Assembly (NCBI GenBank): GCA_964016885.1
Contig: OZ024741.1
Coordinates: 258,354,001-258,418,000, forward strand
Length of the DNA stretch: 64,000 bases
Direction: 5' to 3'
Source: Eledone cirrhosa
Lineage: Eukaryota
Numbering within the stretch: position 1 is the first letter of the stretch; the number at the start of each line of letters is the position of its first letter. Under the pieces are notes generated by a model that made no database searches, had not been told where the DNA came from, and saw only the letters and a list, made by a program, of their open reading frames with translations. Both the position numbers and the translations under genes were made by a program. Below, one piece after another: positions 1 through 57,709 of the stretch.

Positions 1-69
1 AAATAACAAATAGACGCGGTTTCAAATCTCTATGCTTTTCAAATTCATTACATTAATCTTTATTTACAC
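1..69 (+). repeat. AT-rich element, first copy (TTTACAC allele, shared with 37393 and 56563)
   Basis: Read directly from the sequence. Confidence 0.95.
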
Positions 70-640
70 GTTTCGCTTTACGAGTGTTTCGACTTACGAG
101 TGTTTCGACTTACGAGTGTTTCGACTTACGAGTGTTTCAACTTACGAGTGTTTCGACTTACGAGTGTTTTGACTTACGAGTGTTCTGACTTACGAGTGTT
201 CTGACTTACGAGTGTTTCGACTTACGAGTGTTCTGACTTACGAGTGTTCTGACTTACGAGTGTTTCGACTTACGAGTGTTTCGACTTACGAGTGTTTCGA
301 CTTACGAGTGTTTCGACTTACGAGTGTTTCGACTTACGAGTGTTTCGACTTACGAGTGTTCTGACTTACGAGTGTTCTGACTTACGAATGTTTCGACTTA
401 CGAGTGTTTCGGCTTATGAGTGTTTCGACTTACGAGTGTTTCGATACGAGTGTTCTGACTTACGAGTGTTCTGACTTACGAGTGTTCTGACTTACGAGTG
501 TTCCGACTTTACGAGTGTTTCGGCTCACGAGTGTTTCGGCTTACGAGTGTTTTAATTTACGAGTGTTTTGAATTACGGGTGCTTCGACTTACGCGTGTTT
601 CGACTTACGAGTGTTTCGACTTACGAGTGTTTCGACTTAC

Positions 641-3600
641 GAGTGATTCGACTTAGGAGTGTTTCGGCTGGCGAGTGTTTCGACTTACGAGTGTTTTGAC
701 TTAAGGGTGTTTCGACTTACGAGTGTTTCGACTTACGAGTGTTTCGACTTACGAGTGTTTCGGCTTACGAGTGTTTTGACTTAAGGGTGTTTCGACTTAC
801 GAGTGTTTCGATACGAGTGTTTCGACTTACGAGTGTTCTGACTTACGATTGTTCTGACTTACGAGCGTTCTGACTTACGAGTGTTCTGACTTACGAGTGT
901 TTCGGCTTACGAGTGTTTCGGCTTACGAGTGTTTCGACTTACGAGTGTTTCGACTTACGAGTGTTCCGACTTACGGGTGTTTCGACTTACGAGTGTTTTG
1001 GCTTATAGTGTTTCGGCTTACGAGTGTTTCGAGTTAAGAGTGTTTTGACTTACGCGTGTTTTGACATACGAGTGTTCTGACTTACGAGTGTTCTGACTTA
1101 CGAGTGTTCTGACTTACGAGTGTTCTGACTTACGAGTGTTCCGACTTTACGAGTGTTTCGGCTCTCGAGTGTTTCGGCTTACGAGTGTTTCAACTTACGA
1201 AAATAACAAATAGACGCGGTTTCAAATCTCTATGCTTTTGAAATTCATTACATTAATCTTTATTTATACGTTTCGCTTTACGAGTGTTTCCACTTACGAG
1301 TGTTTCGACATACGAGTGTTTCGACTTACGAGTGTTTCGACTTACGAGTGTTCTGATTTACGGATGTTTCGACATACGAGTGTTTCGACTTACGAATGTT
1401 TCGACTTACGAGTGTTTTGACTTACGGGTGTTTTGACATACGAGTGTTTCGATACGAGTGTTTCGACTTACGAGTGTTCTGACTTACGATTGTTCTGACT
1501 TACGAGCGTTCTGACTTACGAGTGTTTCGGCTTACAAGTGATTCGACTTACGAATGTTTTGACTTACGGGTGTTTCGGCTTGCGAGTGTTTCGACTTACG
1601 AGTGTTTCGGCTTGCAAGTGTTTCGACTTACTAATGATTTTACTTACGAGTGTTTCGGCGTACGTGTGTTTCGACTTACGAGTGTTTCGACTTACGAGTG
1701 TTTTGACTTAATGGTGTTTCGACTTACGAGTGTTTCGACTTACGAGTGTTTCGACTTACGAGTGTTTCGGATTACGAGTGTTTTGACTTGAGGGTTTTCG
1801 ACTTACGAGTGTTTCGATACGAGTGTTTCGACTTACGAGTGTTCTGACTTACGAGTGTTCTGACTTACGAGTGTTCTGACTTACAAGTGTTCTTACTTAC
1901 GACTGTTCCGACTTACGAGTGTTCCGACTTACGAGTGTTTTGGCTTACGGTGTTTCGGCTTACGAGTGTTTCGAGTTACGAGACTTTTGACTTACGCGTG
2001 TTTTGACATACGAGTGTTTCGATACGAGTGTTCTGACTTACGAGTGTTCTGACTTACGAGTGTTCTGAGTTACGAGTGTTCTGACTTACGAGTGTTCCGA
2101 CTTTACGAGTGTTTCGGCTCACGAGTGTTTCGGCTTACGAGTGTTTCGACTTACGAAAATAACAAATAGACGCGGTTTCAAATCTCTATGCTTTTCAAAT
2201 TCATTACATTAATCTTTATTCATACGTTTCGCTTTACGAGTGTTTCGACTTACGAGTGTTTCGACATACGAGTGTTTCGGCTTACGAGTGTTTTGATTTA
2301 CGAGTGTTTTGACTTACGGGTGCTTCGACTTACGCGTGTTTCGACTTACGAGTGTTTCGACTTACGAGTGTTTCGACTTACGAGTGTTTCGGCTTACGAG
2401 TGTTTTGACTTACGAGTGTTTCGGCTGGCGAGTGTTTCGACTTACGAGTGTTTTGACTTAAGGGTGTTTCGACTTACGAGTGTTTCGACTTACGTGTGTT
2501 CCGACTTACGAGTGTTTCGGCTATGGGTGTTTCGACTTACGAGTGTTTCGACTTACGAATGTTTTGGCTTACGAGTGTTTCGGCTTAGGAGTGTTTCGAC
2601 TTACGAATGTTTTGGCTTACGAGTGTTTCGGCTTAGGGGTGTTTCGACTTACGAGTGTTTCGATACGAGTGTTTCGACTTACGAGTGTTTCGGCTTACGA
2701 GTGTTTCGACTTACGAGTGTTTCGACTTACGAGTGTTCTGATTTACGGATGTTTCGACATACGAAGGTTTCGACTTACGAGTGTTTCGACTTACGAGTGT
2801 TTTGACTTACGTGTGTTTTGACATACGAGTGTTTCGATACGAGTGTTTCGACTTACGAGTGTTCTGACTTACGATTGTTCTGAATTACCAGCGTTCTGAC
2901 TTACGAGTGTTTCGGCTTACGAGTGTTTCGGCTTACGAGTGTTTCGACTTACGAGTGTTTCGACTTACGAGTGTTCCGACTTACGGGTGTTTCGACTTAC
3001 GAGTGTTTTGGCTTACGGTGTTTCGACTTACGAGTGTTTCGAGTTAAGAGTGTTTTGACTTACGCGTGTTTTGACATACGAGTGTTCTGACTTACGAGTG
3101 TTCTGACTTACGAGTGTTCTGACTTACGAGTGTTCTGACTTACGAGCGTTCCGACTTTACGGGTGTTTCGGCTCACGAGTGTTTCGGCTTACGAGTGTTT
3201 CGACTTACGAAAATAACAAATAGACGCGGTTTCAAATCTCTATGCTTTTAAAATTCATTACATTAATCTTTATTTATACGTTTCGCTTTACGAGTGTTTC
3301 GACTTACGAGTGTTTCGACATACGAGTGTTTCGACTTACGAATGTTTTTGCTTCCGGGTGTTTCGACTTACGAATGTTGTTGCTTACGAGTGTTTCGGTT
3401 TACGAGAGTTCCGACTTACGAGTGTTCCGACTTACGAGTGTTTCGGCTTACGAGTGTTTCCGGCTTACGAGTGTTTCGACTTAGGAGTGTTTCGACATAC
3501 GAATGTTTTGGCTTACGGGTGTTTCGACTTACGAGTGTTTCGACTTACGGGTGTTTCGACTTACGAGTGTTTTGGCTTACGGTGTTTCGACTTACGAGTG

Positions 3601-6600
3601 TTTCGGCTTACGAGTGTTTTGACTTAATGGTGTTTCGACTTACGAGTGTTTCGATACGAGTGTTTCGACTTACGAGTGTTTCGGCTTACGAGTGTTTCGA
3701 CTTACGAGTGTTTCGACTTACGAGTGTTCTGATTTACGGATGTTTCGAAATACGAGTGTTTCGACTTACGAGTGTTCTGACTTACGATTGTTCTGACTTA
3801 CGAGCGTTCTGACTTACGAGTGTTTCGGCTTACGAGTGTTTCGGCTTACGAGTGTTTCGACTTACGAGTGTTTCGACTTACGAGTGTTCCGACTTACGGG
3901 TGTTTCGACTTACGAGTGTTTTGGCTTACGGTGTTTCGACTTACGAGTGTTTCGAGTTAAGAGTGTTTTGACTTACGCGTGTTTTGACATACGAGTGTTC
4001 TGACTTACGAGTGTTCTGACTTACGAGTGTTCTGACTTACGAGTGTTCCGACTTTACGAGTGTTTCGGCTCACGAGTGTTTCGGCTTACGAGTGTTTCGA
4101 CTTACGAAAATAACATATAGACGCGGTTTCAAATCTCTATGCTTTTGAAATTCATTACATTAATCTTTATTTATACGTTTTGCTTTACGAGTGTTTCGAC
4201 TTACGAGTGTTTCGACATACGAGTGTTTCGACTTACGAATGTTTTTGCTTACGGGTGTTTCGACTTACGAATGTTTCGGCTTACGAGTGTTTCGACTTAC
4301 GAGTGTTCTGACTTACGAGTGTTCTGACTTATGAGTGTTCTGACTTACGAGTGTTCTGACTTACGAGTGTTCTGACTTACGAGTGTTTTGACTTACGGTG
4401 TTTCGGCTTACAAGTGATTCGACTTACGAATGTTTTGACTTACGGGTGTTTCGGCTTGTGAGTGTTTCGACTTACGAGTGTTTCGGCTTATGAGTGTTTC
4501 GACTTACTAATGTTTTTACTTACGAGTGATTCGGCGTACGAGTGTTTTGACTTACGAGTGTTTCGGCTTACGAGTGTTTCGACTTACGAGTGTTCTAACT
4601 TACGAGTGTTCTGACTTATGAGTGTTCTGACTTACGAGTGTTCTGACTTACGAGTGTTCCGACTTACGAGTGTTTCGGCTTACGAGTGTTTCGGCTTACG
4701 AGTGTTTCGTCTTACGAGTGTTCTGACTTACGAGTGTTCTGACTTATGAGTGTTCTGACTTACGAGTGTTCTGACTTACGAGTGTTTCGACTTACGAGTG
4801 TTTTGACTTACTGGTATTTTGACATACGAGTGTTTCGATACGAGTGTTTCGACTTACGAGTGTTCTGACTTACGAGTGTTCTAACTTACGAGTGTTCTGA
4901 CTTACGAGTGTTCCGACATTACGAGTGTTTCGGCTCACGAGTGTTTCGGCTTACGAGTGTTTCGACTTACGAAAATAACATATAGACGCGGTTTCAAATC
5001 TCTATGCTTTTCAAATTCATTACATTAATCTTTATTTATACGTTTCGCTTTACGAGTGTTTCGACTTACGAGTGTTTCGACATACGAGTGTTTCGACTTA
5101 CGAATGTTTTTGCTTACGGGTGTTTCGACTTACGAATGTTTCGGCTTACGAGTGTTTCGACTTACGAGTGTTCTGACTTACGAGTGTTCTGACTTATGAG
5201 TGTTCTGACTTACGAGTGTTCTGACTTACGAGTGTTCTGACTTACGAGTGTTTTGACTTACGGTGTTTCGGCTTACAAGTGATTCGACTTACGAATGTTT
5301 TGACTTACGGGTGTTTCGGCTTGCGAGTGTTTCGACTTACGAGTGTTTCGGCTTATGAGTGTTTCGACTTACTAATGTTTTTACTTACGAGTGTTTCGGC
5401 GTACGAGTGTTTTGAATTACGAGTGTTTCGGCTTACGAGTGTTTCGACTTACGAGTGTTCTGACTTACGAGTGTTCTGACTTATGAGTGTTCTGACTTAC
5501 GAGTGTTCTGACTTACGAGTGTTCCGACTTACGAGTGTTTCGGCTTACGAGTGTTTCGGCTTACGAGTGTTTCGTCTTACGAGTGTTCTGACTTACGAGT
5601 GTTCTGACTTATGAGTGTTCTGACTTACGAGTGTTCTGACTTACGAGTGTTTTGACTTACGGTGTTTCGGCTTACGAGTTATTCGACATACGAGTGTTTC
5701 GACACACGAGTGTTTTGACTTACGGGGGTTTCGACTTACGGGTGTTTCGACTTACGAGTGTTTCGGCTTACGAGTGTTTCGACTTACTAATGTTTTTACT
5801 TACGAGTGTTTCGGTGTACGAGTGTTTCGACTTAAGGATGTTTCGACTTACGAGTGTTTCGACTTACGAGTGTTTCGGCTTACGTGAGTTTCGACTTAAG
5901 GGTGTTTTGACTTACGCGTGTTGTGAATTACGAGTGTTCCGATTTACGAGTGTTTTGACTTACGGTGTTTCGGCTTACGAGTTATTCGACTTACGAATGT
6001 TTTGAGTTACGGGTGTTTTGGCTTGCGAGTGTTTCGACTTACGAGTGTTTCGGCTTATGAGTGTTTCGACTTACTAATGTTTTTACTTACGAGTGTTTCG
6101 GCGTACGAGTGTTTTGACTTACGAGTGTTTCGACTTACGGGTGTTTCGGCTTACGAGTCTTTCGACTTACGAGTGTTTCGGCTGGCAAGTGTTTCGACTT
6201 ACGAGTGTTTTGACTTACGAGTGTTTCGACTTACGAGTGTTTCGGCTTACGAGTGTTTTGACTTAAGGGTGTTTCGAATTACGAGTGTTTCGATACGAGT
6301 GTTTCGACTTACGAGTGTTCTGACTTACGAGTGTTCCGACTTACGAGTGTCTCGGCTTACGAGTGTTTCGGCTTACGAGTGTTTCGACTTACGAGTGTTT
6401 CGACTTAAGAGTGTTCCGACTTACGGGTGTTTCGACTTACGAGTGTTTTGGCTTACGGTGTTTCGACTTACGAGTGTTTCGGCTTACGAGTGTTTTGACT
6501 TAAGGGTGTTTCGACTTACGAGTGTTTCGATACGAGTGTTTCGATTTACGAGTGTTTCGGCTTACGAGTGTTTCGACTTACGAGTGTTTCGACTTACGAG

Positions 6601-8200
6601 TGTTCTGATTTACGGATGTTTCGACATACGAGTGTTTCGACTTACGAGTGTTTCGACTTACGAGTGTTTTGACTTACGGGTGTTTTGACATACGAGTGTT
6701 TCGATACGAGTGTTTCGACTTCGAGTGTTCTGACTTACGATTGTTCTGACTTACGAGCGTTCTGACTTACGAGTGTTTCGGCTTACAAGTGATTCGACTT
6801 ACGAATGTTTTGACTTACGGGTGTTTCGGCTTGCGAGTGTTTCGACTTACGAGTGTTTCGGCTTTCGTGTGTTTCGACTTACTAATGATTTTACTTACGA
6901 GTGTTTCGGCGTACGAGTGTTTCGACTTACGAGTGTTTCGACTTACGAGTGTTCCGACTTACGGGTGTTTCGGATTACGAGTGTTTTGACTTGAGGGTTT
7001 TCGACTTACGAGTGTTTCGATACGAGCGTTTCGACTTACGAGTGTTCTGACTTACGAGTGTTCTGACTTACGAGTGTTCTGACTTACAAGTGTTCTTACT
7101 TACGACTGTTTCGACTTACGAGTGTTCCGACTTACGAGTGTTTCGGCTTACGAGTGTTTCGGCTTACGAGTGTTTCGACTTACGAGTGTTCCGACTTACG
7201 GGTGTTTCGACTTACGAGTGTTTTGGCTTACGGTGTTTCGGCTTACGAGTGTTTCGAGTTACGAGAGTTTTGACTTACGCGTGTTTTGACATACGAGTGT
7301 TTCGATACGAGTGTTCTGACTTACGAGTGTTCTGACTTACGAGTGTTCTGAGTTACGAGTGTTCTGACTTACGAGTGTTCCGACTTTACGAGTGTTTCGG
7401 CTCAAGAGTGTTTCGGCTTACGAGTGTTTCGACTTACGAAAATAACAAATAGACGCGGTTTCAAATCTCTATGCTTTTCAAATTCATTACATTAATCTTT
7501 ATTCATACGTTTCGCTTTACGAGTGTTTCGACTTACGAGTGTTTCGACATACGAGTGTTTCGGCTTACGAGTGTTTTGATTTACGAGTGTTTTGACTTAC
7601 GGGTGCTTCGACTTACGCGTGTTTCGACTTACGAGTGTTTCGACTTACGAGTGTTTCGACTTACGAGTGTTTCGGCTTACGAGTGTTTTGACTTACGAGT
7701 GTTTCGGCTGGCGAGTGTTTCGACTTACGAGTGTTTTGACTTAAGGGTGTTTCGACTTACGAGTGTTTCGACTTACGAGTGTTTCGACTTACGAGTGTTT
7801 CGGCTTACGAGTGTTTTGACTTAAGGGTGTTTCGACTTACGAGTGTTTCGATACGAGTGTTTCGACTTACGAGTGTTCTGACTTACGAGTGTTCCGACTT
7901 ACGAGTGTCTCGGCTTACGAGTGTTTCGGCTTACGAGTGTTTCGACTTACGAGTGTTTCGACTTACGAGTGTTCCGACTTACGTGTGTTTCGACTTACGA
8001 GTGTTTTGGCTTAAGGTGTTTCGACTTACGAGTGTTTCGGCTTACGAGTGTTTTGACTTAAGTGTGTTTCGACTTACGAGTGTTTCGATACGAGTGTTTC
8101 GACTTACGAGTGTTTCGGCTTACGAGTGTTTCGACTTACGAGTGTTTCGACTTACGAGTGTTCTGATTTACGGATGTTTCGACATACGAGTGTTTCGACT
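641..8200 (+). repeat. ~7.5-kb higher-order block, duplicated at ~13,468-21,050 (offset 12,827-12,844)
   Basis: Element spacings 956/1054/897/865/2467 recur as 972/1054/897/865/2468 with the same allele order. ORF-track starts pair up: 1232/14059, 2188/15031, 3242/16085, 7471/20315. Confidence 0.9.
4108..5640 (+). repeat. 865-bp tandem duplication (about 1.8 copies) carrying CATAT-allele elements; repeated at 16,951-18,480
   Basis: Elements at 4108 and 4973 are followed by the same variant order. Confidence 0.8.
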
Positions 8201-8750
8201 TACGAGTGTTTCGACTTACGAGTGATTCGACTTAGGAGTGTTTCGGCTGGCGAGTGTTTCGACTTACGAGTGTTTTGACTTAAGGGTGTTTCGACTTACG
8301 AGTGTTTCGACTTACGAGTGTTTCGACTTACGAGTGTTTCGGCTTACGAGTGTTTTGACTTAAGGGTGTTTCGACTTACGAGTGTTTCGATACGAGTGTT
8401 TCGACTTACGAGTGTTCTGACTTACGATTGTTCTGACTTACGAGCGTTCTGACTTACGAGTGTTCTGACTTACGAGTGTTTCGGCTTACGAGTGTTTCGG
8501 CTTACGAGTGTTTCGACTTACGAGTGTTTCGACTTACGAGTGTTCCGACTTACGGGTGTTTCGACTTACGAGTGTTTTGGCTTATAGTGTTTCGGCTTAC
8601 GAGTGTTTCGAGTTAAGAGTGTTTTGACTTACGCGTGTTTTGACATACGAGTGTTCTGACTTACGAGTGTTCTGACTTACGAGTGTTCTGACTTACGAGT
8701 GTTCTGACTTACGAGTGTTCCGACTTTACGAGTGTTTCGGCTCTCGAGTG
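6060..8750 (+). repeat. ~2.7-kb block duplicated at ~11,310-14,000 (offset 5248)
   Basis: ORF pairs 6773/12021, 7090/12338, 7471/12719 and 7779/13027. A 1-bp deletion (GACTTCGAG) is shared at ~6720 and ~11968. Confidence 0.88.
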
Positions 8751-11700
8751 TTTCGACTTACGAGTGTTCTGACTTACGATTGTTCTGACTTACGAGCGTT
8801 CTGACTTACGAGTGTTTCGGCTTACAAGTGATTCGACTTACGAATGTTTTGACTTACGGGTGTTTCGGCTTGCGAGTGTTTCGACTTACGAGTGTTTCGG
8901 CTTGCAAGTGTTTCGACTTACTAATGATTTTACTTACGAGTGTTTCGGCGTACGTGTGTTTCGACTTACGAGTGTTTCGACTTACGAGTGTTTTGACTTA
9001 AGGGTGTTTCGACTTACGAGTGTTTCGACTTACGAGTGTTTCGACTTACGAGTGTTTCGGATTACGAGTGTTTTGACTTGAGGGTTTTCGACTTACGAGT
9101 GTTTCGATACGAGTGTTTCGACTTACGAGTGTTCTGACTTACGAGTGTTCTGACTTACGAGTGTTCTGACTTACAAGTGTTCTTACTTACGACTGTTCCG
9201 ACTTACGAGTGTTCCGACTTACGAGTGTTTTGGCTTACGGTGTTTCGGCTTACGAGTGTTTCGAGTTACGAGACTTTTGACTTACGCGTGTTTTGACATA
9301 CGAGTGTTTCGATACGAGTGTTCTGACTTACGAGTGTTCTGACTTACGAGTGTTCTGAGTTACGAGTGTTCTGACTTACGAGAGTTCCGACTTTACGAGT
9401 GTTTCGGCTCACGAGTGTTTCGGCTTACGAGTGTTTCGACTTACGAAAATAACAAATAGACGCGGTTTCAAATCTCTATGCTTTTCAAATTCATTACATT
9501 AATCTTTATTCATACGTTTCGCTTTACGAGTGTTTCGACTTACGAGTGTTTCGACATACGAGTGTTTCGGCTTACGAGTGTTTTGATTTACGAGTGTTTT
9601 GACTTACGGGTGCTTCGACTTACGCGTGTTTCGACTTACGAGTGTTTCGACTTACGAGTGTTTCGACTTACGAGTGTTTCGGCTTACGAGTGTTTTGACT
9701 TACGAGTGTTTCGGCTGGCGAGTGTTTCGACTTACGAGTGTTTTGACTTAAGGGTGTTTCGACTTACGAGTGTTTCGACTTACGTGTGTTCCGACTTACG
9801 AGTGTTTCGGCTATGGGTGTTTCGACTTATGAGTGTTTCGACTTACGAATGTTTTGGCTTACGAGTGTTTCGGCTTAGGAGTGTTTCGACTTACGAATGT
9901 TTTGGCTTACGAGTGTTTCGGCTTAGGGGTGTTTCGACTTACGAGTGTTTCGATACGAGTGTTTCGACTTACGAGTGTTTCGGCTTACGAGTGTTTCGAC
10001 TTACGAGTGTTTCGACTTACGAGTGTTCTGATTTACGGATGTTTCGACATACGAAGGTTTCGACTTACGAGTGTTTCGACTTACGAGTGTTTTGACTTAC
10101 GTGTGTTTTGACATACGAGTGTTTCGATACGAGTGTTTCGACTTACGAGTGTTCTGACTTACGATTGTTCTGAATTACGAGCGTTCTGACTTACGAGTGT
10201 TTCGGCTTACGAGTGTTTCGGCTTACGAGTGTTTCGACTTACGAGTGTTTCGACTTACGAGTGTTCCGACTTACGGGTGTTTCGACTTACGAGTGTTTTG
10301 GCTTACGGTGTTTCGACTTACGAGTGTTTCGAGTTAAGAGTGTTTTGACTTACGCGTGTTTTGACATACGAGTGTTCTGACTTACGAGTGTTCTGACTTA
10401 CGAGTGTTCTGACTTACGAGTGTTCTGACTTACGGTGTTTCGGCTTACGAGTTATTCGACATACGAGTGTTTCGACACACGAGTGTTTTGACTTACGGGG
10501 GTTTCGACTTACGGGTGTTTCCACTTACGAGTGTTTCGGCTTACGAGTGTTTCGACTTACTAATGTTTTTACTTACGAGTGTTTCGGTGTACGAGTGTTT
10601 CGACTTAAGGATGTTTCGACTTACGAGTGTTTCGACTTACGAGTGTTTCGGCTTACGTGAGTTTCGACTTAAGGGTGTTTTGACTTACGCGTGTTGTGAA
10701 TTACGAGTGTTCCGATTTACGAGTGTTTTGACTTACGGTGTTTCGGCTTACGAGTTATTCGACTTACGAATGTTTTGACTTACGGGTGTTTTGGCTTGCG
10801 AGTGTTTCGACTTACGAGTGTTTCGGCTTATGAGTGTTTCGACTTACTAATGTTTTTACTTACGAGTGTTTCGGCGTACGAGTGTTTTGACTTACGAGTG
10901 TTTAGACTTACGCGTGTTTCGGCTTACGAGTCTTTCGACTTACGAGTGTTTCGGCTGGCAAGTGTTTCGACTTACGAGTGTTTTGACTTACGAGTGTTTC
11001 GACTTACGAGTGTTTCGGCTTACGAGTGTTTTGACTTAAGGGTGTTTCGAATAACGAGTGTTTCGATACGAGTGTTTCGACTTAGTAGTGTTCTGACTTA
11101 CGAGTGTTCCGACTTACGAGTGTCTCGGCTTACGAGTGTTTCGGCTTACGAGTGTTTCGACTTACGAGTGTTTCGACTTACGAGTGTTCCGTCTTACGGG
11201 TGTTTCGACTTACGAGTGTTTTGGCTTACGGTGTTTCGACTTACGAGTGTTTCGGCTTACGAGTGTTTTGACTTAAGGGTGTTTCGACTTACGAGTGTTT
11301 CGATATGAGTGTTTCGATTTACTAATGTTTTTACTTACGAGTGTTTCGGCGTACGAGTGTTTTGACTTACGAGTGTTTCGACTTACGGGTGTTTCGGCTT
11401 ACGAGTCTTTCGACTTACGAGTGTTTCGGCTGGCAAGTGTTTCGACTTACGAGTGTTTTGACTTACGAGTGTTTCGACTTACGAGTGTTTCGGCTTACGA
11501 GTGTTTTGACTTAAGGGTGTTTCGAATTACGAGTGTTTCGATACGAGTGTTTCGACTTACGAGTGTTCTGACTTACGAGTGTTCCGACTTACGAGTGTCT
11601 CGGCTTACGAGTGTTTCGGCTTACGAGTGTTTCGACTTACGAGTGTTTCGACTTAAGAGTGTTCCGACTTACGGGTGTTTCGACTTACGAGTGTTTTGGC

Positions 11701-13467
11701 TTACGGTGTTTCGACTTACGAGTGTTTCGGCTTACGAGTGTTTTGACTTAAGGGTGTTTCGACTTACGAGTGTTTCGATACGAGTGTTTCGATTTACGAG
11801 TGTTTCGGCTTACGAGTGTTTCGACTTACGAGTGTTTCGACTTACGAGTGTTCTGATTTACGGATGTTTCGACATACGAGTGTTTCGACTTACGAGTGTT
11901 TCGACTTACGAGTGTTTTGACTTACGGGTGTTTTGACATACGAGTGTTTCGATACGAGTGTTTCGACTTCGAGTGTTCTGACTTACGATTGTTCTGACTT
12001 ACGAGCGTTCTGACTTACGAGTGTTTCGGCTTACAAGTGATTCGACTTACGAATGTTTTGACTTACGGGTGTTTCGGCTTGCGAGTGTTTCGACTTACGA
12101 GTGTTTCGGCTTTCGTGTGTTTCGACTTACTAATGATTTTACTTACGAGTGTTTCGGCGTACGAGTGTTTCGACTTACGAGTGTTTCGACTTACGAGTGT
12201 TCCGACTTACGGGTGTTTCGGATTACGAGTGTTTTGACTTGAGGGTTTTCGACTTACGAGTGTTTCGATACGAGCGTTTCGACTTACGAGTGTTCTGACT
12301 TACGAGTGTTCTGACTTACGAGTGTTCTGACTTACAAGTGTTCTTACTTACGACTGTTTCGACTTACGAGTGTTCCGACTTACGAGTGTTTCGGCTTACG
12401 AGTGTTTCGGCTTACGAGTGTTTCGACTTACGAGTGTTCCGACTTACGGGTGTTTCGACTTACGAGTGTTTTGGCTTACGGTGTTTCGGCTTACGAGTGT
12501 TTCGAGTTACGAGAGTTTTGACTTACGCGTGTTTTGACATACGAGTGTTTCGATACGAGTGTTCTGACTTACGAGTGTTCTGACTTACGAGTGTTCTGAG
12601 TTACGAGTGTTCTGACTTACGAGTGTTCCGACTTTACGAGTGTTTCGGCTCAAGAGTGTTTCGGCTTACGAGTGTTTCGACTTACGAAAATAACAAATAG
12701 ACGCGGTTTCAAATCTCTATGCTTTTCAAATTCATTACATTAATCTTTATTCATACGTTTCGCTTTACGAGTGTTTCGACTTACGAGTGTTTCGACATAC
12801 GAGTGTTTCGGCTTACGAGTGTTTTGATTTACGAGTGTTTTGACTTACGGGTGCTTCGACTTACGCGTGTTTCGACTTACGAGTGTTTCGACTTACGAGT
12901 GTTTCGACTTACGAGTGTTTCGGCTTACGAGTGTTTTGACTTACGAGTGTTTCGGCTGGCGAGTGTTTCGACTTACGAGTGTTTTGACTTAAGGGTGTTT
13001 CGACTTACGAGTGTTTCGACTTACGAGTGTTTCGACTTACGAGTGTTTCGGCTTACGAGTGTTTTGACTTAAGGGTGTTTCGACTTACGAGTGTTTCGAT
13101 ACGAGTGTTTCGACTTACGAGTGTTCTGACTTACGAGTGTTCCGACTTACGAGTGTCTCGGCTTACGAGTGTTTCGGCTTACGAGTGTTTCGACTTACGA
13201 GTGTTTCGACTTACGAGTGTTCCGACTTACGTGTGTTTCGACTTACGAGTGTTTTGGCTTAAGGTGTTTCGACTTACGAGTGTTTCGGCTTACGAGTGTT
13301 TTGACTTAAGTGTGTTTCGACTTACGAGTGTTTCGATACGAGTGTTTCGACTTACGAGTGTTTCGGCTTACGAGTGTTTCGACTTACGAGTGTTTCGACT
13401 TACGAGTGTTCTGATTTACGGATGTTTCGACATACGAGTGTTTCGACTTACGAGTGTTTCGACTTAC

Positions 13468-24000: not shown

Positions 24001-24200
24001 CGACTTACGAGTGTTTCGACTTACGAGTGTTCCGACTTACGTGTGTTTCGACTTACGAGTGTTTTGGCTTAAGGTGTTTCGACTTACGAGTGTTTCGGCT
24101 TACGAGTGTTTTGACTTAAGTGTGTTTCGACTTACGAGTGTTTCGATACGAGTGTTTCGACTTACGAGTGTTTCGGCTTACGAGTGTTTCGACTTACGAG
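19900..24200 (+). repeat. 1607-bp tandem higher-order repeat, about 2.7 copies, one element per unit
   Basis: Elements at 20284, 21891 and 23498; ORF triplets 19934/21541/23148 and 20623/22230/23837. Confidence 0.92.
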
Positions 24201-46500: not shown

Positions 46501-49500
46501 CGTACGAGTGTTTTGACTTACGAGTGTTTCGACTTACGGGTGTTTCGGCTTACGAGTCTTTCGACTTACGAGTGTTTCGACTTACGAGTGTTTCGGATTA
46601 CGAGTGTTCTGACTTACGAGTGTTCTGACTTACGAGTGTTCTGACTTACGAGTGTTTCGACTTACGAGTGTTTCGACTTACGAGTGTTTCGACTTACGAG
46701 TGTTTCGACTTACGAGTGTTTCGACTTACGAGTGTTCTGACTTACGAGTGTTCTGACTTACGAATGTTTCGACTTACGAGTGTTTCGGCTTATGAGTGTT
46801 TCGACTTACGAGTGTTTCGGCTTACGAGTGTTTCGACTTACGAGTGTTTCGATTTACGAGTGTTTCGACTTACGGGTGTTTCCACTTACGAGTGTTTCGA
46901 CTACGAGTGTTTCGACTTACGAGTGTTTCGGCTTACGAGTGTTTCGACATACGGGTGTTTCGACTTACGGTGTTTCGGCTTACGAGTGTTTCGATACGAG
47001 TGTTCTGACTTACGAGTGTTCTGACTTACGAGTGTTCTGACTTACGAGTGTTCCGACTTTACGAGTGTTTCGGCTCACGAGTGTTTCGGCTTACGAGTGT
47101 TTTAATTTACGAGTGTTTTGAATTACGGGTGCTTCGACTTACGCGTGTTTCGACTTACGAGTGTTTCGACTTACGAGTGTTTCGACTTACGAGTGATTCG
47201 ACTTACGAATGTTTTGACTTACGGGTGTTTCGGCTTGCGAGTGTTTCGACTTACGAGTGTTTCGACTTAGGAGTGTTTCGGCTGGCGAGTGTTTCGACTT
47301 ACGAGTGTTTTGACTTAAGGGTGTTTCGACTTACGAGTGTTTCGACTTACGAGTGTTTCGACTTACGAGTGTTTCGGCTTACGAGTGTTTTGACTTAAGG
47401 GTGTTTCGACTTACGAGTGTTTCGATACGAGTGTTTCGACTTACGAGTGTTCTGACTTACGATTGTTCTGACTTACGAGCGTTCTGACTTACGAGTGTTC
47501 TGACTTACGAGTGTTTCGGCATACGAGTGTTTCGGCTTACGAGTGTTTCGACTTACGAGTGTTTCGACTTACGAGTGTTCCGACTTACGGGTGTTTCGAC
47601 TTACGAGTGTTTTGGCTTATAGTGTTTCGGCTTACGAGTGTTTCGAGTTAAGAGTGTTTTGACTTATGCGTGTTTTGACATACGAGTGTTCTGACTTACG
47701 AGTGTTCCGACTTTACGAGTGTTTCTGCTCTCGAGTGTTTCGGCTTACGAGTGTTTCAACTTACGAAAATAACAAATAGACGCGGTTTCAAATCTCTATG
47801 CTTTTGAAATTCATTACATTAATCTTTCTTTATACGTTTCGCTTTACGAGTGTTTCCACTTACGAGTGTTTCGACATACGAGTGTTTCGACTTACGAGTG
47901 TTTCGACTTACGAGTGTTCTGATTTACGGATGTTTCGACATACGAGTGTTTCGACTTACGAGTGTTTCGACTTACGAGTGTTTTGACTTACGGGTGTTTT
48001 GACATACGAGTGTTTCGATACGAGTGTTTCGACTTACGAGTGTTCTGACTTACGATTGTTCTGACTTACGAGCGTTCTGACTTACGAGTGTTTCGGCTTA
48101 CAAGTGATTCGACTTACGAATGTTTTGACTTACGGGTGTTTCGGCTTGCGAGTGTTTCGACTTACGAGTGTTTCGGCTTGCGAGTGTTTCGACTTACTAA
48201 TGATTTTACTTACGAGTGTTTCGGCGTACGTGTGTTTCGACTTACGAGTGTTTCGACTTACGGGTGTTTTGACTTACGGGTGTTTCGGCTTACGAGTGTT
48301 TCGACTTACGAGTGTTTTGACTTAAGGGTGTTTCGACTTACGAGTGTTTCGACTTACGAGTGTTTCGACTTACGAGTGTTTCGGATTACGAGTGTTTTGA
48401 CTTGAGGGTTTTCGACTTACGAGTGTTTCGATACGAGTGTTTCGACTTACGAGTGTTCTGACTTACGAGTGTTCTGACTTACGAGTGTTCTGACTTACAA
48501 GTGTTCTTACTTACTACTGTTCCGACTTACGAGTGTTCCGACTTACGAGTGTTTCGGCTTACGAGTGTTTCGGCTTACGAGTGTTTCGACTTACGAGTGT
48601 TCCGACTTACGGGTGTTTCGACTTACGAGTGTTTTGGCTTACGGTGTTTCGGCTTACGAATGTTTCGAGTTACGAGAGTTTTGACTTACGCGTGTTTTGA
48701 CATACGAGTGTTTCGATACGAGTGTTCTGACTTACGAGTGTTCTGACTTACGAGTGTTCTGAGTTACGAGTGTTCTGACTTACGAGTGTTCCGACTTTAC
48801 GAGTGTTTCGGCTCACGAGTGTTTCGGCTTACGAGTGTTTCGACTTACGAAAATAACAAATAGACGCGGTTTCAAATCTCTATGCTTTTCAAATTCATTA
48901 CATTAATCTTTATTCATACGTTTCGCTTTACGAGTGTTTCGACTTACGAGTGTTTCGACATACGAGTGTTTCGGCTTACGAGTGTTTTGATTTACGAGTG
49001 TTTTGACTTACGGGTGCTTCGACTTACGCGTGTTTCGACTTACGAGTGTTTCGACTTACGAGTGTTTCGACTTACGAGTGTTTCGGCTTACGAGTGTTTT
49101 GACTTACGAGTGTTTCGGCTGGCGAGTGTTTCGACTTACGAGTGTTATGACTTAAGGGTGTTTCGACTTACGAGTGTTTCGACTTACGTGTGTTCCGACT
49201 TACGAGTGTTTCGGCTATGGGTGTTTCGACTTACGAGTGTTTCGACTTACGAATGTTTTGGCTTACGAGTGTTTCGGCTTAGGAGTGTTTCGACTTACGA
49301 ATGTTTTGGCTTACGAGTGTTTCGGCTTAGGGGTGTTTCGACTTACGAGTGTTTCGATACGAGTGTTTCGACTTACGAGTGTTTCGGCTTACGAGTGTTT
49401 CGACTTACGAGTGTTTCGACTTACGAGTGTTCTGATTTACGGATGTTTCGACATACGAAGGTTTCGACTTACGAGTGTTTCGACTTACGAGTGTTTTGAC

Positions 49501-52500
49501 TTACGATTGTTCTGAATTACGAGCGTTCTGACTTACGAGTGTTTCGGCTTACGAGTGTTTCGGCTTACGAGTGTTTCGACTTACGAGTGTTTCGACTTAC
49601 GAGTGTTCCGACTTACGGGTGTTTCGACTTACGAGTGTTTTGGCTTACGGTGTTTCGACTTACGAGTGTTTCGAGTTAAGAGTGTTTTGACTTACGCGTG
49701 TTTTGACATACGAGTGTTCTGACTTACGAGTGTTCTGACTTACGAGTGTTCTGACTTACGAGTGTTCTGACTTACGAGTGTTCCGACTTTACGAGTGTTT
49801 CGGCTCACGAGTGTTTCGGCTTACGAGTGTTTCGACTTACGAAAATAACAAATAGACGCGGTTTCAAATCTCTATGCTTTTAAAATTCATTACATTAATC
49901 TTTATTTATACGTTTCGCTTTACGAGTGTTTCGACTTACGAGTGTTTCGACATACGAGTGTTTCGACTTACGAATGTTTTTGCTTCCGGGTGTTTCGACT
50001 TACGAATGTTTTTGCTTACGAGTGTTTCGGTTTACGAGAGTTCCGACTTACGAGTGTTCCGACTTACGAGTGTTTCGGCTTACGAGTGTTTCCGGCTTAC
50101 GAGTGTTTCGACTTAGGAGTGTTTCGACATACGAATGTTTTGGCTTACGAGTGTTTCGGCTTACGGGTGTTTCGACTTACGAGTGTTTCGACTTACGAGT
50201 GTTTTGACTTACGGTGTTTCGGCTTACGAGTTATTCGACATACGAGTGTTTCGACACACGAGTGTTTTGACTTACGGGGGTTTCGACTTACGGGTGTTTC
50301 GACTTACGAGTGTTTCGGCTTACGAGTGTTTCGACTTACTAATGTTTTTACTTACGAGTGTTCTGATTTACGGATGTTTCGACATACGAAGGTTTCGACT
50401 TACGAGTGTTTCGACTTACGAGTGTTTTGACTTACGTGTGTTTTGACATACGAGTGTTTCGATACGAGTGTTTCGACTTACGAGTGTTCTGACTTACGAT
50501 TGTTCTGAATTACGAGCGTTCTGACTTACGAGTGTTTCGGCTTACGAGTGTTTCGATTTCGAGTGTTTCGACTTACGATTGTTTCGACTTACGAGTGTTC
50601 CGACTTACGGGTGTTTCGACTTACGAGTGTTTTGGCTTACGGTGTTTCGACTTACGAGTGTTTCGAGTTAAGAGTGTTTTGACTTACGCGTGTTTTGACA
50701 TACGAGTGTTCTGACTTACGAGTGTTCTGACTTACGAGTGTTCTGACTTACGAGTGTTCTGACTTACGAGTGTTCCGACTTTACGAGTGTTTCGGCTCAC
50801 GAGTGTTTCGGCTTACGAGTGTTTCGACTTACGAAAATAACAAATAGACGCGGTTTCAAATCTCTATGCTTTTAAAATTCATTACATTAATCTTTATTTA
50901 TACGTTTCGCTTTACGAGTGTTTCGACTTACGTGTGTTTCGACATACGAGTGTTTCGACTTACGAATGTTTTTGCTTCCGGGTGTTTCGACTTACGAATG
51001 TTTTTGCTTACGAGTGTTTCGGTTTACGAGAGTTCCGACTTACGAGTGTTCCGACTTACGAGTGTTTCGGCTTACGAGTGTTTCCGGCTTACGAGTGTTT
51101 CGACTTAGGAGTGTTTCGACATACGAATGTTTTGGCTTACGAGTGTTTCGGCTTACGGGTGTTTCGACTTACGAGTGTTTCGACTTACGAGTGTTTTGAC
51201 TTACGGTGTTTCGGCTTACGAGTTATTCGACATACGAGTGTTTCGACACACGAGTGTTTTGACTTACGGGGGTTTCGACTTACGGGTGTTTCGACTTACG
51301 AGTGTTTCGGCTTACGAGTGTTTCGACTTACTAATGTTTTTACTTACGAGTGTTTCGGTGTACGAGTGTTTCGACTTAAGGATGTTTCGACTTACGAGTG
51401 TTTCGACTTACGAGTGTTTCGGCTTACGTGAGTTTCGACTTAAGGGTGTTTTGACTTACGCGTGTTGTGAATTACGAGTGTTCCGATTTACGAGAGTTTT
51501 GACTTACGGTGTTTCGGCTTACGAGTTATTCGACTTACGAATGTTTTGACTTACGGGTGTTTTGGCTTGCGAGTGTTTCGACTTACGAGTGTTTCGGCTT
51601 ATCAGTGTTTCGACTTACTAATGTTTTTACTTACGAGTGTTTCGGCGTACGAGTGTTTTGACTTACGAGTGTTTCGACTTACGGGTGTTTCGGCTTACGA
51701 GTCTTTCGACTTACGAGTGTTTCGGCTGGCAAGTGTTTCGACTTACGAGTGTTTTGACTTACGAGTGTTTCGACTTACGAGTGTTTCGGCTTACGAGTGT
51801 TTTGACTTAAGGGTGTTTCGAATTACGAGTGTTTCGATACGAGTGTTTCGACTTACGAGTGTTCTGACTTACGAGTGTTCCGACTTACGAGTGTCTCGGC
51901 TTACGAGTGTTTCGGCTTACGAGTGTTTCGACTTACGAGTGTTTCGACTTACGAGTGTTCCGACTTACGGGTGTTTCGACTTACGAGTGTTTTGGCTTAC
52001 GGTGTTTCGACTTACGAGTGTTTTGGCTTACGAGTGTTTTTTTACTTAAGGGTGTTTCGACTTACGAGTGTTTCGATACGAGTGTTTCGATTTACGAGTG
52101 TTTCGGCTTACGAGTGTTTCGACTTACGAGTGTTTCGACTTACGAGTGTTCTGATTTACGGATGTTTCGACATACGAGTGTTTCGACTTACGAGTGTTTC
52201 GACTTACGAGTGTTTTGACTTACGGGTGTTTTGACATACGAGTGTTTCGATACGAGTGTTTCGACTTACGAGTGTTCTGACTTACGATTGTTCTGACTTA
52301 CGAGCGTTCTGACTTACGAGTGTTTCGGCTTACAAGTGATTCGACTTACGAATGTTTTAACTTACGGGTGTTTCGGCTTGCGAGTGTTTCGACTTACGAG
52401 TGTTTCGGCTTGCGAGTGTTTCGACTTACTAATGATTTTACTTACGAGTCTTTCGGCGTACGAGTGTTTCGACTTACGAGTGTTTCGACTTACGGGTGTT

Positions 52501-55500
52501 TTGACTTACGGGTGTTTCGGCTTATGAGTGTTTCGACTTACGAGTGTTTCGACTTACGATTGTTTCGGATTACGAGTGTTTTGACTTGAGGGTTTTCGAC
52601 TTACGAGTGTTTCGATACGAGTGTTTCGACTTACGAGTGTTCTGACTTACGAGTGTTCTGACTTACGAGTGTTCTGACTTACAAGTGTTCTTACTTACGA
52701 CTGTTTCGACTTACGAGTGTTCCGACTTACGAGTGTTTCGGCTTACGAGTGTTTCGACTTACGAGTGTTTCGACTTACGAGTGTTCCGACTTACGGGTGT
52801 TTCGACTTACGAGTGTTTTGGCTTACGGTGTTTCGGCTTACGAGTGTTTCGAGTTACGAGAGTTTTGACTTACGCGTGTTTTGACATACGAGTGTTTCGA
52901 TACGAGTGTTCTGACTTACGAGTGTTCTGACTTACGAGTGTTCTGAGTTACGAGTGTTCTGACTTACGAGTGTTCCGACTTTACGAGTGTTTCGGCTCAC
53001 GAGTGTTTCGGCTTACGAGTGTTTCGACTTACGAAAATAACAAATAGACGCGGTTTCAAATCTCTATGCTTTTCAAATTCATTACATTAATCTTTATTCA
53101 TACGTTTCGCTTTACGAGTGTTTCGACTTACGAGTGTTTCGACATACGAGTGTTTCGGCTTACGAGTGTTTTGATTTACGAGTGTTTTGACTTACGGGTG
53201 CTTCGACTTACGCGTGTTTCGACTTACGAGTGTTTCGACTTACGAGTGTTTCGACTTACGAGTGTTTCGGCTTACGAGTGTTTTGACTTACGAGTGTTTC
53301 GGCTGGCGAGTGTTTCGACTTACGAGTGTTTTGACTTAAGGGTGTTTCGACTTACGAGTGTTTCGACTTACGAGTGTTTCGACTTACGAGTGTTTCGGCT
53401 TACGAGTGTTTTGACTTAAGGGTGTTTCGACTTACGAGTGTTTCGATACGAGTGTTTCGACTTACGAGTGTTCTGACTTACGAGTGTTCCGACTTACGAG
53501 TGTCTCGACTTACGAGTGTTTCGGCTTACGAGTGTTTCGACTTACGAGTGTTTCGACTTACGAGTGTTCTGATTTACGGATGTTTCGACATACGAGTGTT
53601 TCGACTTACGAGTGTTTCGACTTACGAGTGTTTTGACTTACGTGTGTTTTGACATACGAGTGTTTCGATACGAGTGTTTCGACTTACGAGTGTTCTGACT
53701 TACGATTGTTCTGACTTACGAGCGTTCTGACTTTCGAGTGTTTCGGCTTACGAGTGTTTCGGCTTACGAGTGTTTCGACTTACGAGTGTTTCGACTTACG
53801 AGTGTTCCGACTTACGGGTGTTTCGACTTACGAGTGTTTTGGCTTACGGTGTTTCGACTTACGAGTGTTTCGAGTTAAGAGTGTTTTGACTTACGCGTGT
53901 TTTGACATACGAGTGTTCTGACTTACGAGTGTTCTGACTTACGAGTGTTCTGACTTACGAGTGTTCTGACTTACGAGTGTTCCGACTTTACGAGTGTTTC
54001 GGCTCACGAGTGTTTCGGCTTACGAGTGTTTCGACTTACGAAAATAACAAATAGACGCGGTTTCAAATCTCTATGCTTTTAAAATTCATTACATTAATCT
54101 TTATTTATACGTTTCGCTTTACGAGTGTTTCGACTTACGAGTGTTTCGACATACGAGTGCTTCGACTTACGAATGTTTTTGCTTACGGGTGTTTCGACTT
54201 ACGAATGTTTTTGCTTACGAGTGTTTCGGTTTACGAGTGTTCCGACTTACGAGTGTTCCGACTTACGAGTGTTTCGGCTTACGAGTGTTTCCGGCTTACG
54301 AGTGTTTCGACTTACGAGTGTTTCGACTTACGAGTGTTTTGACTTACGGTGTTTCGGCTTACGAGTGATTAGACTTACGAGTGTTTTGACTTACGGGTGT
54401 TTTGACTTACGGGTGTTGTGAATTACGAGTGTTCCGATTTACGAGTGTTTTGACTTACGGTGTTTCGGCTTACAAGTGATTCGACTTACGAATGTTTTGA
54501 CTTACGGGTGTTTCGGCTTGCGTGTGTTTCGACTTACGAGTGTTTCGGCTTATGAGTGTTTCGACTTACTAATGTTTTTACTTACGAGTGTTTCGGCGTA
54601 CGAGTGTTTTGACTTACGAGTGTTTCGACTTACGAGTGTTTTGACGTACGAATGTTTTGACTTACGGGTGTTTCGGCTTACGAGTGTTTCGACTTACGAG
54701 TGTTTCGGCTTGCGAGTGTTTCGACTTACTAATGTTTTTACTTACGAGTGTTTCGGCGTACGAGTGTTTCGACTTACAAGTGTTTCGACTTAAGGGTGTT
54801 TCGACTTACGAGTGTTTTGGCTTACGGTGTTTCGACTTACGAGTGTGTTGGCTTACGAGTGTTTTGACTTAAGGGTGTTTCGACTTACGAGTGTTTCGAT
54901 ACGAGTGTTTCGATTTACGAGTGTTTCGGCTTACGAGTGTTTCGACTTACGAGTGTTTCGACTTACGAGTGTTTTGACTTACGGGTGTTTTGACATACGA
55001 GTGTTTCGATACGAGTGTTTCGACTTACGAGTGTTCTGACTTACGATTGTTCTGACTTACGAGCGTTCTGACTTCCGAGTGTTTCGGCTTACAAGTGATT
55101 CGACTTACGAATGTTTTAACTTACGGGTGTTTCGGCTTGCGAGTGTTTCGACTTACGAGTGTTTCGGCTTGCGAGTGTTTCGACTTACTAATGATTTTAC
55201 TTACGAGTCTTTCGGCGTACGAGTGTTTCGATTTACGAGTGTTTCGACTTACGGGTGTTTTGACTTACGGGTGTTTCGGCTTACGAGTGTTTCGACTTAC
55301 GAGTGTTTCGACTTACGAGTGTTTCGGATTACGAGTGTTCTGACTTACGAGTGTTCTGACTTACGAGTGTTTTGACTTACGGTGTTTCGGCTTACAAGTG
55401 ATTCGACTTACGAATGTTTTGACTTACGGGTGTTTCGGCTTGCGAGTGTTTCGACTTACGAGTGTTTCGGCTTATGAGTGTTTCGACTTACTAATGTTTT

Positions 55501-55540
55501 TACTTACGAGTGTTTCGGCGTACGAGTGTTTTGACTTACG
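37550..55540 (+). repeat. ~9.0-kb tandem higher-order duplication (two copies, junction near 46.6 kb)
   Basis: Offsets of 9002-9064 across ORF pairs 37636/46668, 38766/47798, 40872/49874, 44048/53066 and 46380/55398. Shared private variants: TCTTTCTTTA element allele, long T run at ~43035/52037, TTATCAG at ~42600/51602, GTGTGTTGG at ~45826/54844. Confidence 0.93.
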
Positions 55541-57267
55541 AGTGTTTCGGCTTACGAGTGTTTCGACTTACGAGTGTTCTGACTTACGAGTGTTCTGACT
55601 TATGAGTGTTCTGACTTACGAGTGTTCTGACTTACGAGTGTTCCGACTTACGAGTGTTTCGGCTTACGAGTGTTTCGGCTTACGAGTGTTTCGTCTTACG
55701 AGTGTTCTGACTTACGAGTGTTCTGACTTATGAGTGTTCTGACTTACGAGTGTTCTGACTTACGAGTGTTTCGACTTACTGGTGTTTTGACATACGAGTG
55801 TTTCGATACGAGTGTTTCGACTTACGAGTGTTCTGACTTACGAGTGTTCTAACTTACGAGTGTTCCGACTTACGAGTGTTTCGGCTCACGTGTGTTTCGG
55901 CTTACGAGTGTTTCGACTTACGAAAATAACAAATAGACGCGGTTTCAAATCTCTATGCTTTTCAAATTCATTACATTAATCTTTATTTATACGTTTCGCT
56001 TTACGAGTGTTTCGACTTACGAGTGTTTCGGCTTACGAGTGTTTTGACTTACGAGTGTTTTGACTTACATGTGTTTCGACTTACGCGTGTTTCGACTTAC
56101 GAGTGTTTCGACTTGCGAGTGTTTCGACTACGGGTGTTTCGACTTACGAATGTTTTGACTTACGGACGTTTTGACTTACGGGTGTTTCGGCTTACGAGTG
56201 TTTCGACTTACGAGTGTTTCGACTTACGAGTGTTTTGACTTACGAGTGTTTTGACTTACGGTGTTTCGGCTTACGAGTGTTTCGACTTACGAGTGTTTTG
56301 ACTTACGGGTGTTTTGACATACGAGTGTTTCGATACGAGTGTTCTGACTTACGAGTGTTCTGGCTTACGAGTGTTCTGACTTACGAGTGTTTTGACTTAC
56401 GAGTGTTCTGACATACGTGTGTTCTGACTTACGAGTGTTCCGATTTACGAGTGTTTCGGCATATGAGTGTTTCGACTTACGGATGTTTTTGCTTACGGGT
56501 GTTTCGACTTACGAATGTTTTTGCTTACGAGTGTTTCGGCTTACGAGTGTTTCGACTTACGAAAATAACAAATAGACGCGGTTTCAAATCTCTATGCTTT
56601 TCAAATTCATTACATTAATCTTTATTTACACGTTTCGCTTTACGAGTGTTTCGACTTACGAGTGTTTCGGCTTACGAGTGTTTTGACTTACGAGTGTTTC
56701 GGCTGGCGAGTGTTTCGACTTACGAGTGTTTTGACTTAAGGGTGTTTCGACTTACGAGTGTTTCGACTTACGAGTGTTTCGACTTACGAGTGTTTCGGCT
56801 TACGAGTGTTTTGACTTAAGGGTGTTTCGACTTACGAGTGTTTCGACTTACGAGTGTTTCGACTTACGAGTGTTTCGGCTTACGAGTGTTTTGACTTAAG
56901 TGTGTTTCGACTTACGAGTGTTTCGATACGAGTGTTTCGACTTACGAGTGTTTCGGCTTACGAGTGTTTCGACTTACGAGTGTTTCGACTTACGAGTGTT
57001 CTGACTTACGATTGTTCTGACTTACGAGCGTTCTGACTTACGAGTGTTTCGGCTTACGAGTGTTTTGGCTTACGGTGTTTCGACTTACGAGTGTTTCGAG
57101 TTAAGAGTGTTTTGACTTACGCGTGTTTTGACATACGAGTGTTCTGACTTACGAGTGTTCTGACTTACGAGTGTTCTGACTTACGAGTGTTCTGACTTAC
57201 GAGTGTTCCGACTTTACGAGTGTTTCGGCTCACGAGTGTTTCGGCTTACGAGTGTTTCGACTTACGA

Positions 57268-57336
57268 AAATAACAAATAGACGCGGTTTCAAATCTCTAT
57301 GCTTTTAAAATTCATTACATTAATCTTTATTTATAC
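57268..57336 (+). repeat. AT-rich element, last copy in the window (TTTTAAAA allele)
   Basis: Read directly; no further copy seen between 57,337 and 64,000. Confidence 0.95.
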
Positions 57337-57709
57337 GTTTCGCTTTACGAGTGTTTCGACTTACGAGTGTTTCGACTTACGAGTGTTCTGATTTACGGAT
57401 GTTTCGACATACGAGTGTTTCGACTTACGAGTGTTTCGACTTACGAGTGTTTTGACTTACGTGTGTTTTGACATACGAGTGTTTCGATACGAGTGTTTCG
57501 ACTTACGAGTGTTCTGACTTACGATTGTTCTGACTTACGAGCGTTCTGACTTACGAGTGTTTCGGCTTACGAGTGTTTCGGCTTACGAGTGTTTCGACTT
57601 ACGAGTGTTTCGACTTACGAGTGTTCCGACTTACGGGTGTTTCGACTTACGAGTGTTTTGGCTTACGGTGTTTCGACTTACGAGTGTTTCGAGTTAAGAG
57701 TGTTTTGAC

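Follow-up and report, generated by a model that had tools for sequence, protein, structure and literature searches.

Satellites that grew from the central repeats of Helitron-type elements have been reported in Drosophila (PMC9957191; reviewed in PMC9659126) and in the Pacific oyster (PMC7492417, PMC8268682), and the route is reviewed in PMC12628747. The stretch analyzed here, referred to as the window, is 64 kb of Eledone cirrhosa DNA (C2:258354001-258418000; genome counts were taken over the 3.0-Gb assembly), in which a 69-bp segment recurs within an array of a 16-bp satellite. This segment is very probably an internal piece of a ~510-bp Helitron-type transposon, and the satellite the internal repeat of the same transposon, which expanded and carried the piece along passively. 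The sequence in common, the retained ends, the private deletion, the single junction and the size series are seen directly. Conversion of a Helitron internal repeat into a satellite is already published for flies and oysters. The E. cirrhosa case is a new and unusually well-documented example, whose value lies in the completeness of its record, with the size intermediates still present.

The DINE-TR1 satellites (Drosophila virilis, D. biarmipes and D. serrata dmgsat-7) likewise arose when the central tandem repeat within a non-autonomous rolling-circle element expanded; that element is of Helentron type, with ~150-bp units and arrays of up to ~82.6 kb (PMC9957191). The E. cirrhosa case, in contrast, has an element with TC...CTAG ends, a 16-bp unit, an estimated extent of 6.7-7.7 Mb, and a non-repeat internal segment that was co-amplified. 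Closer in layout is the Cg170/HindIII (CgiSat01) satellite of Crassostrea gigas with Cg_HINE, where a left end, a microsatellite, a short segment, central repeats and a right end follow one another in the same order (PMC7492417, PMC8268682). Element-bound, one-sided and free arrays coexist in both species (PMC7492417, PMC8268682), yet those of the oyster are short and scattered, the longest having 89 monomers within an element and 232 when free (PMC7492417, PMC8268682), whereas in E. cirrhosa one founder lineage gave rise to megabase blocks with a two-level unit. In the truncated-Helitron arrays of plant centromeres (Xiong, Dooner, Du 2016, cited in PMC12628747 and PMC8268682), part of a Helitron is likewise repeated before a single 3′ end; the repeated part there includes the 5′ end, as far as these citing sources describe it, whereas the E. 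cirrhosa unit is internal and lacks both ends. The family is undescribed in the literature searched, in which no paper with four of its motifs was found, the supplements of the centromere-atlas preprint 10.64898/2026.09.17.752431, which might include it, lying outside the scope of that search.

The parent transposon and the probable founding of the array

A 25-base core of the segment has 1709 exact matches in the genome and its reversed control has none, so that the matches are not due to chance; many of them are single copies far from any satellite. Eighteen dispersed copies on C1, located with the TC end motif after that motif had first been sighted, define an element of ~510 bp whose interior consists of segment bases 5-69 and the first monomer. 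All 18 share one order: a TC-starting AT-rich end, (GTCT)n, an A-tract, bases 5-69, a 17-bp variant monomer and 1-3 further monomers, a body of ~320 bp, and a hairpin ending in CTAG that is followed by T. The ordinary element thus holds 2-4 monomers of 16 bp. Fifteen copies measure 482-517 bp, and the other three, at 703-755 bp, contain an insertion resembling a short interspersed element (SINE), which may be similar to the octopus SINEs. Exact matches to the transposon-type 5′ context number 151 (76 on the plus and 75 on the minus strand), and the 100 of them that are listed are spread along C1-C4. The 17-bp variant monomer trails the segment in dispersed and window copies alike. The segment had been predicted to replace a GT of the monomer; this holds in appearance, but on its right the segment meets the neighbor that it already has in the parent transposon.

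Canonical non-autonomous Helitrons have a 5′ TC, a 3′ CTRR, a 16-20-nt palindrome ~11 bases from the 3′ end, insertion at A/T and no target-site duplication (PMC4067079). The E. cirrhosa element agrees in its 5′ TC (18/18 copies, with several classes of sequence upstream), its 3′ CTAG (18/18), a palindrome whose GC-rich core lies 11 bases from the end, and the T that comes next in all 18 (comparison with PMC4067079). It differs in that the stem also reaches the last base, and in that copies lie head to tail, so that true insertion sites are not isolated. The hairpin has a folding energy of -12.9 kcal/mol (z -5.05), and none of 200 shuffles was as stable. The base before the element is A in 6 copies, G in 11 and T in 1, the G belonging to a common upstream module and not to a host insertion site. 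In the flanks of the 18 copies no target-site duplication was visible, and resumption of an interrupted host sequence around the copies was not found; both the A/T insertion site and the duplication status are hard to read because the copies sit in chains of similar elements. On its structure, the parent is likely of the canonical non-autonomous Helitron type. The TT-flanked ends of the Helentron/HINE/DINE-1 class are lacking, as the ends are TC...CTAG and TT precedes the 5′ end in none of the 18 copies. Origin from a pogo/Tigger-type miniature inverted-repeat element, suggested by a likeness of the monomer, was dropped as the ends are not inverted repeats.

The first 30 bases of the element have 171 exact genome matches and its last 17 bases have 4607, the latter representing a wider family of ends, so that many 5′ modules use one terminator. 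Helitron-like elements form head-to-tail chains (L029-L046, L081-L083, L137), and in most chained copies CTAG directly abuts the TC start of another family, in one instance a RepHel-bearing element. The genome contains at least 150 matches to RepHel (PF14214). Immediately before another RepHel locus, on C1, lies a sister element whose 3′ hairpin is 90% alike.

Array copies differ from dispersed copies in the first four bases of the 69-mer, and the edges of the arrays account for these bases. Where the C2 complex begins on the left, the satellite comes after the transposon 5′ part (from base 9), whose A-tract has been joined to base 5 by an 8-bp deletion, yielding exactly the first four bases of the 69-mer. 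The deleted 5′ part has four matches in the genome, while the deletion is absent from the 151 dispersed matches. Three of the four are array starts on C2 (254.735, 257.768 and 262.043 Mb; L048, L078, L079) that have ~6 kb of upstream flank in common at 96-99.6% identity. The fourth (L077) is a 2.6-kb copy on C4 in which one 5′ part, three units of the segment with 40-50 monomers each, and one 3′ end follow one another. Its upstream flank differs from that of the C2 arrays, while beyond the 3′ end it agrees with L047 by 98% over 406 bp. The C4 copy retains the upstream module of ordinary copies and has deletions of its own, and for this reason it appears from its sequence to be a sister of the C2 arrays and not their parent. 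At six sampled places (L014, L047, L086, L125, L146, L155) the satellite runs into the transposon 3′ body.

The left junction of each array copy, from monomer to A-tract, has 2022 exact genome matches (1431 on the plus and 591 on the minus strand). It is a single recombination join common to the array copies, in which one A fits either side. Among the 100 matches listed, 25 lie in a ~100-kb array on C1, 4 in a 4-kb array at C2:240.96 Mb and the others in the main complex. Through the private deletion and the one junction, an estimated 7 Mb of satellite can be traced to a single lineage of the ~510-bp transposon. The genome preserves a size series of 2-4, 14 and ~40 monomers, the 14 being in an undeleted dispersed copy (L080), followed by the 2.6-kb three-unit copy, the 4-kb and ~100-kb arrays, and megabases. 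The monomer of the long array is thus also a short array in a dispersed element, the mark of a transposon-derived satellite. A second passenger of ~735 bp, comprising the 3′ body and the start of the next element, recurs in the array (L014, L086, L125, L155); near C2:257.40 Mb it gives rise to a higher-order unit of 3.1-6.2 kb.

Proposed amplification and the organization of the window

The first three steps of the order proposed here are read from existing genomic copies, and for their mechanisms we infer the following. Ordinary copies, with the segment and 2-4 monomers, would have slipped upward in monomer number, as the copy with 14 suggests. In one lineage, 8 bp directly upstream of the segment were then lost and the monomers rose to ~40. 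A single illegitimate join of monomer and A-tract, with one A of overlap, would have duplicated the segment and its ~40 monomers in tandem, leaving one 5′ and one 3′ end around the units, the arrangement present on C4. Unequal exchange and duplication at kilobase to megabase scale could subsequently have amplified the ~0.7-1-kb unit, with slippage and monomer exchange altering tract length and dropping the segment in places. Selection would not be required for the segment to persist.

Alternatively, the unit could have been multiplied mainly by the Helitron rolling-circle enzyme around an internal circle, and not by host recombination. Rolling-circle amplification is on record for truncated Helitrons (Xiong et al. 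2016, cited in PMC12628747), RepHel frames of up to 1718 codons occur in the genome, and the different upstream flanks of the C4 copy and the C2 arrays imply that the expanded form moved. The described arrays, however, repeat the 5′ end, whereas the unit here has neither end, and the window is built of nested duplications of 1.6-12.8 kb with gaps of monomer size. As the main engine the enzyme is therefore improbable; it may have been the source of the first triplication, and an involvement in the first step is conceivable, but the unit is without the transposon ends.

The window is a portion of the multi-megabase satellite complex on C2, and its features are given in Table 1. As the original prediction had it, 40 copies of the 69-mer lie in one orientation; none was found on the minus strand of the window with up to 20 mismatches allowed, and shared 12-mers disclosed no partial copies in it. 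The five variable items that had been counted correspond to six variable columns, 9 (A/T), 40 (C/G/A), 54, 62, 65 and 67, which form 9 haplotypes; the GC content of the segment is 26%. Spacers of 0.57-4.07 kb were confirmed as 570-4069 bp (median 1015, mean 1399, coefficient of variation 0.55). Absence of indels holds within the window but not outside it, 2 of 162 copies lacking 2 bp. Spacing of about a kilobase is likewise local, since 20 samples contained 0-8 copies per 10 kb and two of them none. Drift by whole monomers is borne out in part, by gaps of 16, 32 and 16 between recent duplicates; gaps of 1 and 62 also occur, and spacer lengths occupy 12 of the 16 classes modulo 16.

Table 1. 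Features of the window (positions counted from its first base).
Feature	Position	Strand	Details
16-bp satellite array, unit GTTTCGACTTACGAGT	1..64000	+	period 16, 4009 copies, 82% matches
69-bp segment, 40 copies	1..57336	+	ungapped search; first 1-69, last 57268-57336
69-bp segment, starts of copies 1-14	1, 1201, 2157, 3211, 4108, 4973, 7440, 9447, 12688, 14028, 15000, 16054, 16951, 17816	+	
69-bp segment, starts of copies 15-28	20284, 21891, 23498, 25330, 26735, 29122, 30255, 34393, 35878, 36754, 37393, 38735, 39819, 40841	+	
69-bp segment, starts of copies 29-40	41833, 44017, 45024, 47767, 48851, 49843, 50835, 53035, 54042, 55924, 56563, 57268	+	
Recent higher-order duplication, offset ~12.8 kb	1201..20352	+	1201-7508 vs 14028-20352, 8 substitutions in 6308 aligned bases
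Recent higher-order duplication, offset ~9.0 kb	38735..54110	+	38735-45092 vs 47767-54110, 7 substitutions in 6296 aligned bases
Satellite without segment	57337..64000	+	1960-bp tandem duplication near 59020-62950
Example copy, bases 1-4: end of transposon A-tract	55924..55927	+	beside base 5 through the founder 8-bp deletion
Example copy, bases 5-69: interior of dispersed element, unchanged	55928..55992	+	alignment of 18 dispersed copies
Example copy, 17-bp variant first monomer	55993..56009	+	native right neighbor of the segment in the transposon

Two blocks of ~6.3 kb each recur at 99.9% identity, and the low diversity of the 69-mer in the window is partly due to this recent duplication of blocks. 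The final 6664 bases, which have no copy, open a ~95-kb stretch of which 44 kb was sampled, again with 0 copies. In the example copy, bases 5-69 equal the column majority of 162 array copies. The composite array is not an assembly artifact, because the junction of monomer and segment is crossed by 19 raw reads, with three joints listed (run X21, from another sample with the same species label as X1).

Conservation of the segment

The original prediction had proposed two readings, one insertion amplified passively with its flanks or a functional landmark, and had named a diversity check on which equality of segment and flanks would speak against the landmark. That check was run, loci L001-L008 being excluded from the counts since they had been chosen as perfect matches, and equality was the outcome for the adjacent monomers. 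In 39 window copies, nucleotide diversity is 0.023 in the segment, while the two nearest monomers to its left and right have 0.006-0.018. In gap-aware alignment of 162 array copies, the segment shows 36 of 207 possible alleles, against 44 of 195 across 65 bases of flank (p=0.21; p 0.6-1.0 by base class), and the mean distance from the majority is 173/11174 in the segment against 200/10528 in the flank. Variation touches 30 of the 69 columns, with no invariant run longer than 5. For 217 close pairs selected on one flank, the segment differs by 0.0083 and the first 33 bases of the other flank by 0.0076. The second, non-repetitive passenger (690 bp of 3′ body and flank) differs by 1.3-2.6% between 4 C2 sites, to which the comparison was restricted as an earlier 9-copy figure had mixed in two non-array copies, and the segment by 2.9% between loci (167 copies). 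The segment is no more conserved than the adjacent monomers or the second passenger. Its constant look would come from its youth and from its being the sole part unable to slip out of register. Of the passive reading, single origin and passive carriage stand, but the segment was not inserted into the satellite; the satellite grew in the transposon.

Several observations weigh against this origin or against passive carriage. The first 8 bases of the transposon are missing from the array starts on C2. The class of the parent is assigned by structure, and no autonomous partner with its ends was found in 20 windows of 10 kb among at least 150 RepHel loci. In the close pairs, flanks out to 65-129 bp diverge by 0.012-0.015 against 0.0083 in the segment, even when the comparison stops at the first slip (p from 0.002 to 1e-8); the outer flanks thus diverge 1.5-1.8 times faster, with ungapped values, which slips inflate, of 0.019-0.030. 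An ungapped count over 52 outside copies gave 20 alleles in the segment against 49 (p=2e-4), an excess that vanished under gap-aware alignment of the larger set of 162. Finally, three duplicated blocks have 0 segment substitutions where 3.0 are expected (P=0.05; P=0.35 for the two long pairs). The faster outer-flank divergence and the shortfall in the blocks likely come from monomer exchange and higher GC, two causes not fully separated.

These last figures are also what speaks for co-option, in which a segment of transposon origin would have become a landmark (a nucleosome-poor or protein-binding site, a promoter, or a seed for CENP-A) kept by selection. Its AT-richness and the position of the array in a satellite-rich block with a strand switch at ~61-63% of a 416-Mb contig agree with such a role. 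Yet segment variants are spread evenly with no protected core, the majority segment is still the sequence of the transposon, the adjacent monomers and the second passenger are equally diverse, and long stretches carry no segment at all, among them 2 of 20 10-kb samples and the 44 kb right of the last window copy. Co-option is accordingly very unlikely, and the apparent functional landmark becomes a fossil marker. That satellite and segment are the older, with the transposon taking up part of the array afterwards, as Helitrons do capture genomic DNA including tandem repeats (PMC12628747, PMC8268682), is the least credible course and already largely refuted: arrays start and end in transposon sequence, array copies bear a derived deletion missing from the 151 dispersed matches, no satellite lies upstream of the segment in dispersed copies, and 2-4, 14 and ~40 monomers occur inside complete copies.

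With passive expansion from within the transposon as the favored account, the ~2000 passenger copies offer a built-in neutral clock for the rates of monomer-tract slippage, conversion and duplication. In the segment and adjacent monomers, CpG sites diverge by ~0.018, which slightly exceeds the 0.011-0.015 of A/T sites and stays under the 0.031-0.036 of other C/G sites and argues against strong methylation-driven decay.

The satellite complex on C2 and minor observations

In the samples, the 16-bp satellite spans C2 from 254.73 to ~263.0 Mb, on the plus strand except at ~258.92-260.12 Mb; one part of the complex, of ~1.2 Mb, is inverted. Its amount, mostly on C2, is estimated at 6.7 Mb from dimers and 7.7 Mb from junctions (338 kb sampled, scaled to genome counts), and the spread of either over contigs refers to the 100 matches listed. 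All 24 perfect six-monomer runs lie on C2. The flank of ~6 kb common to three array starts points to segmental duplication at megabase scale. Between 254.7 and 263.5 Mb, 16-bp arrays alternate with a 39-bp unit (75- and 114-bp multiples) and with 45-, 37-, 26-, 57- and 97-bp units (L016, L022-L024, L028, L087-L089, L095, L098, L099, L104, L110, L115, L152). At C2:258506718 (L145:1718) the 16-bp and 39-bp satellites meet abruptly through a common GTGTTGT-like overlap.

The region C2:254.7-263.5 Mb is a candidate centromere or pericentromere. That the ~8-Mb block is a young centromere core derived from one Helitron copy, with the 16-bp array carrying CENP-A, is a more speculative candidate and on balance unlikely. 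If true, the birth of a centromeric satellite would be open to direct dating and testing, its steps marked by one deletion and one junction.

On C1, the ~100-kb composite array (L084, L085; 279.29-279.40 Mb) lies between 25-26-bp and 33-bp satellites. Its edges have no transposon ends, which suggests that a piece moved between chromosomes. Seventeen other organism labels contain 7-26% of the sequence words, and no RNA data set was among those listed; the pieces from X4-X7 are short, of low depth and near-identical, and one X7 contig has the junction at depth 5.2. Relatives and carry-over are indistinguishable here, and these data were not used as evidence.

A coding reading of the window was rejected: the 12 ATG frames of 152-205 aa, all on the plus strand, are by-products, because the repeated monomer is stop-free on that strand. 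So was a structured nucleic acid. Rfam gave 2 matches, at E 0.96 and 6.5, far under gathering scores, and the 69-bp segment folds worse than 192-193 of 200 shuffles.

A candidate intact autonomous Helitron is present at C2:315.526-315.531 Mb (L058), with an unbroken frame of 1718 codons and a Helitron_like_N domain. Four small contigs (C20:3.5-5.2, C27:13.1-15.5, C19:35-40 and C16:0.5-0.8 Mb) have near-identical RepHel matches at intervals of ~110-160 kb, which suggests very large tandem units, each with a Helitron.

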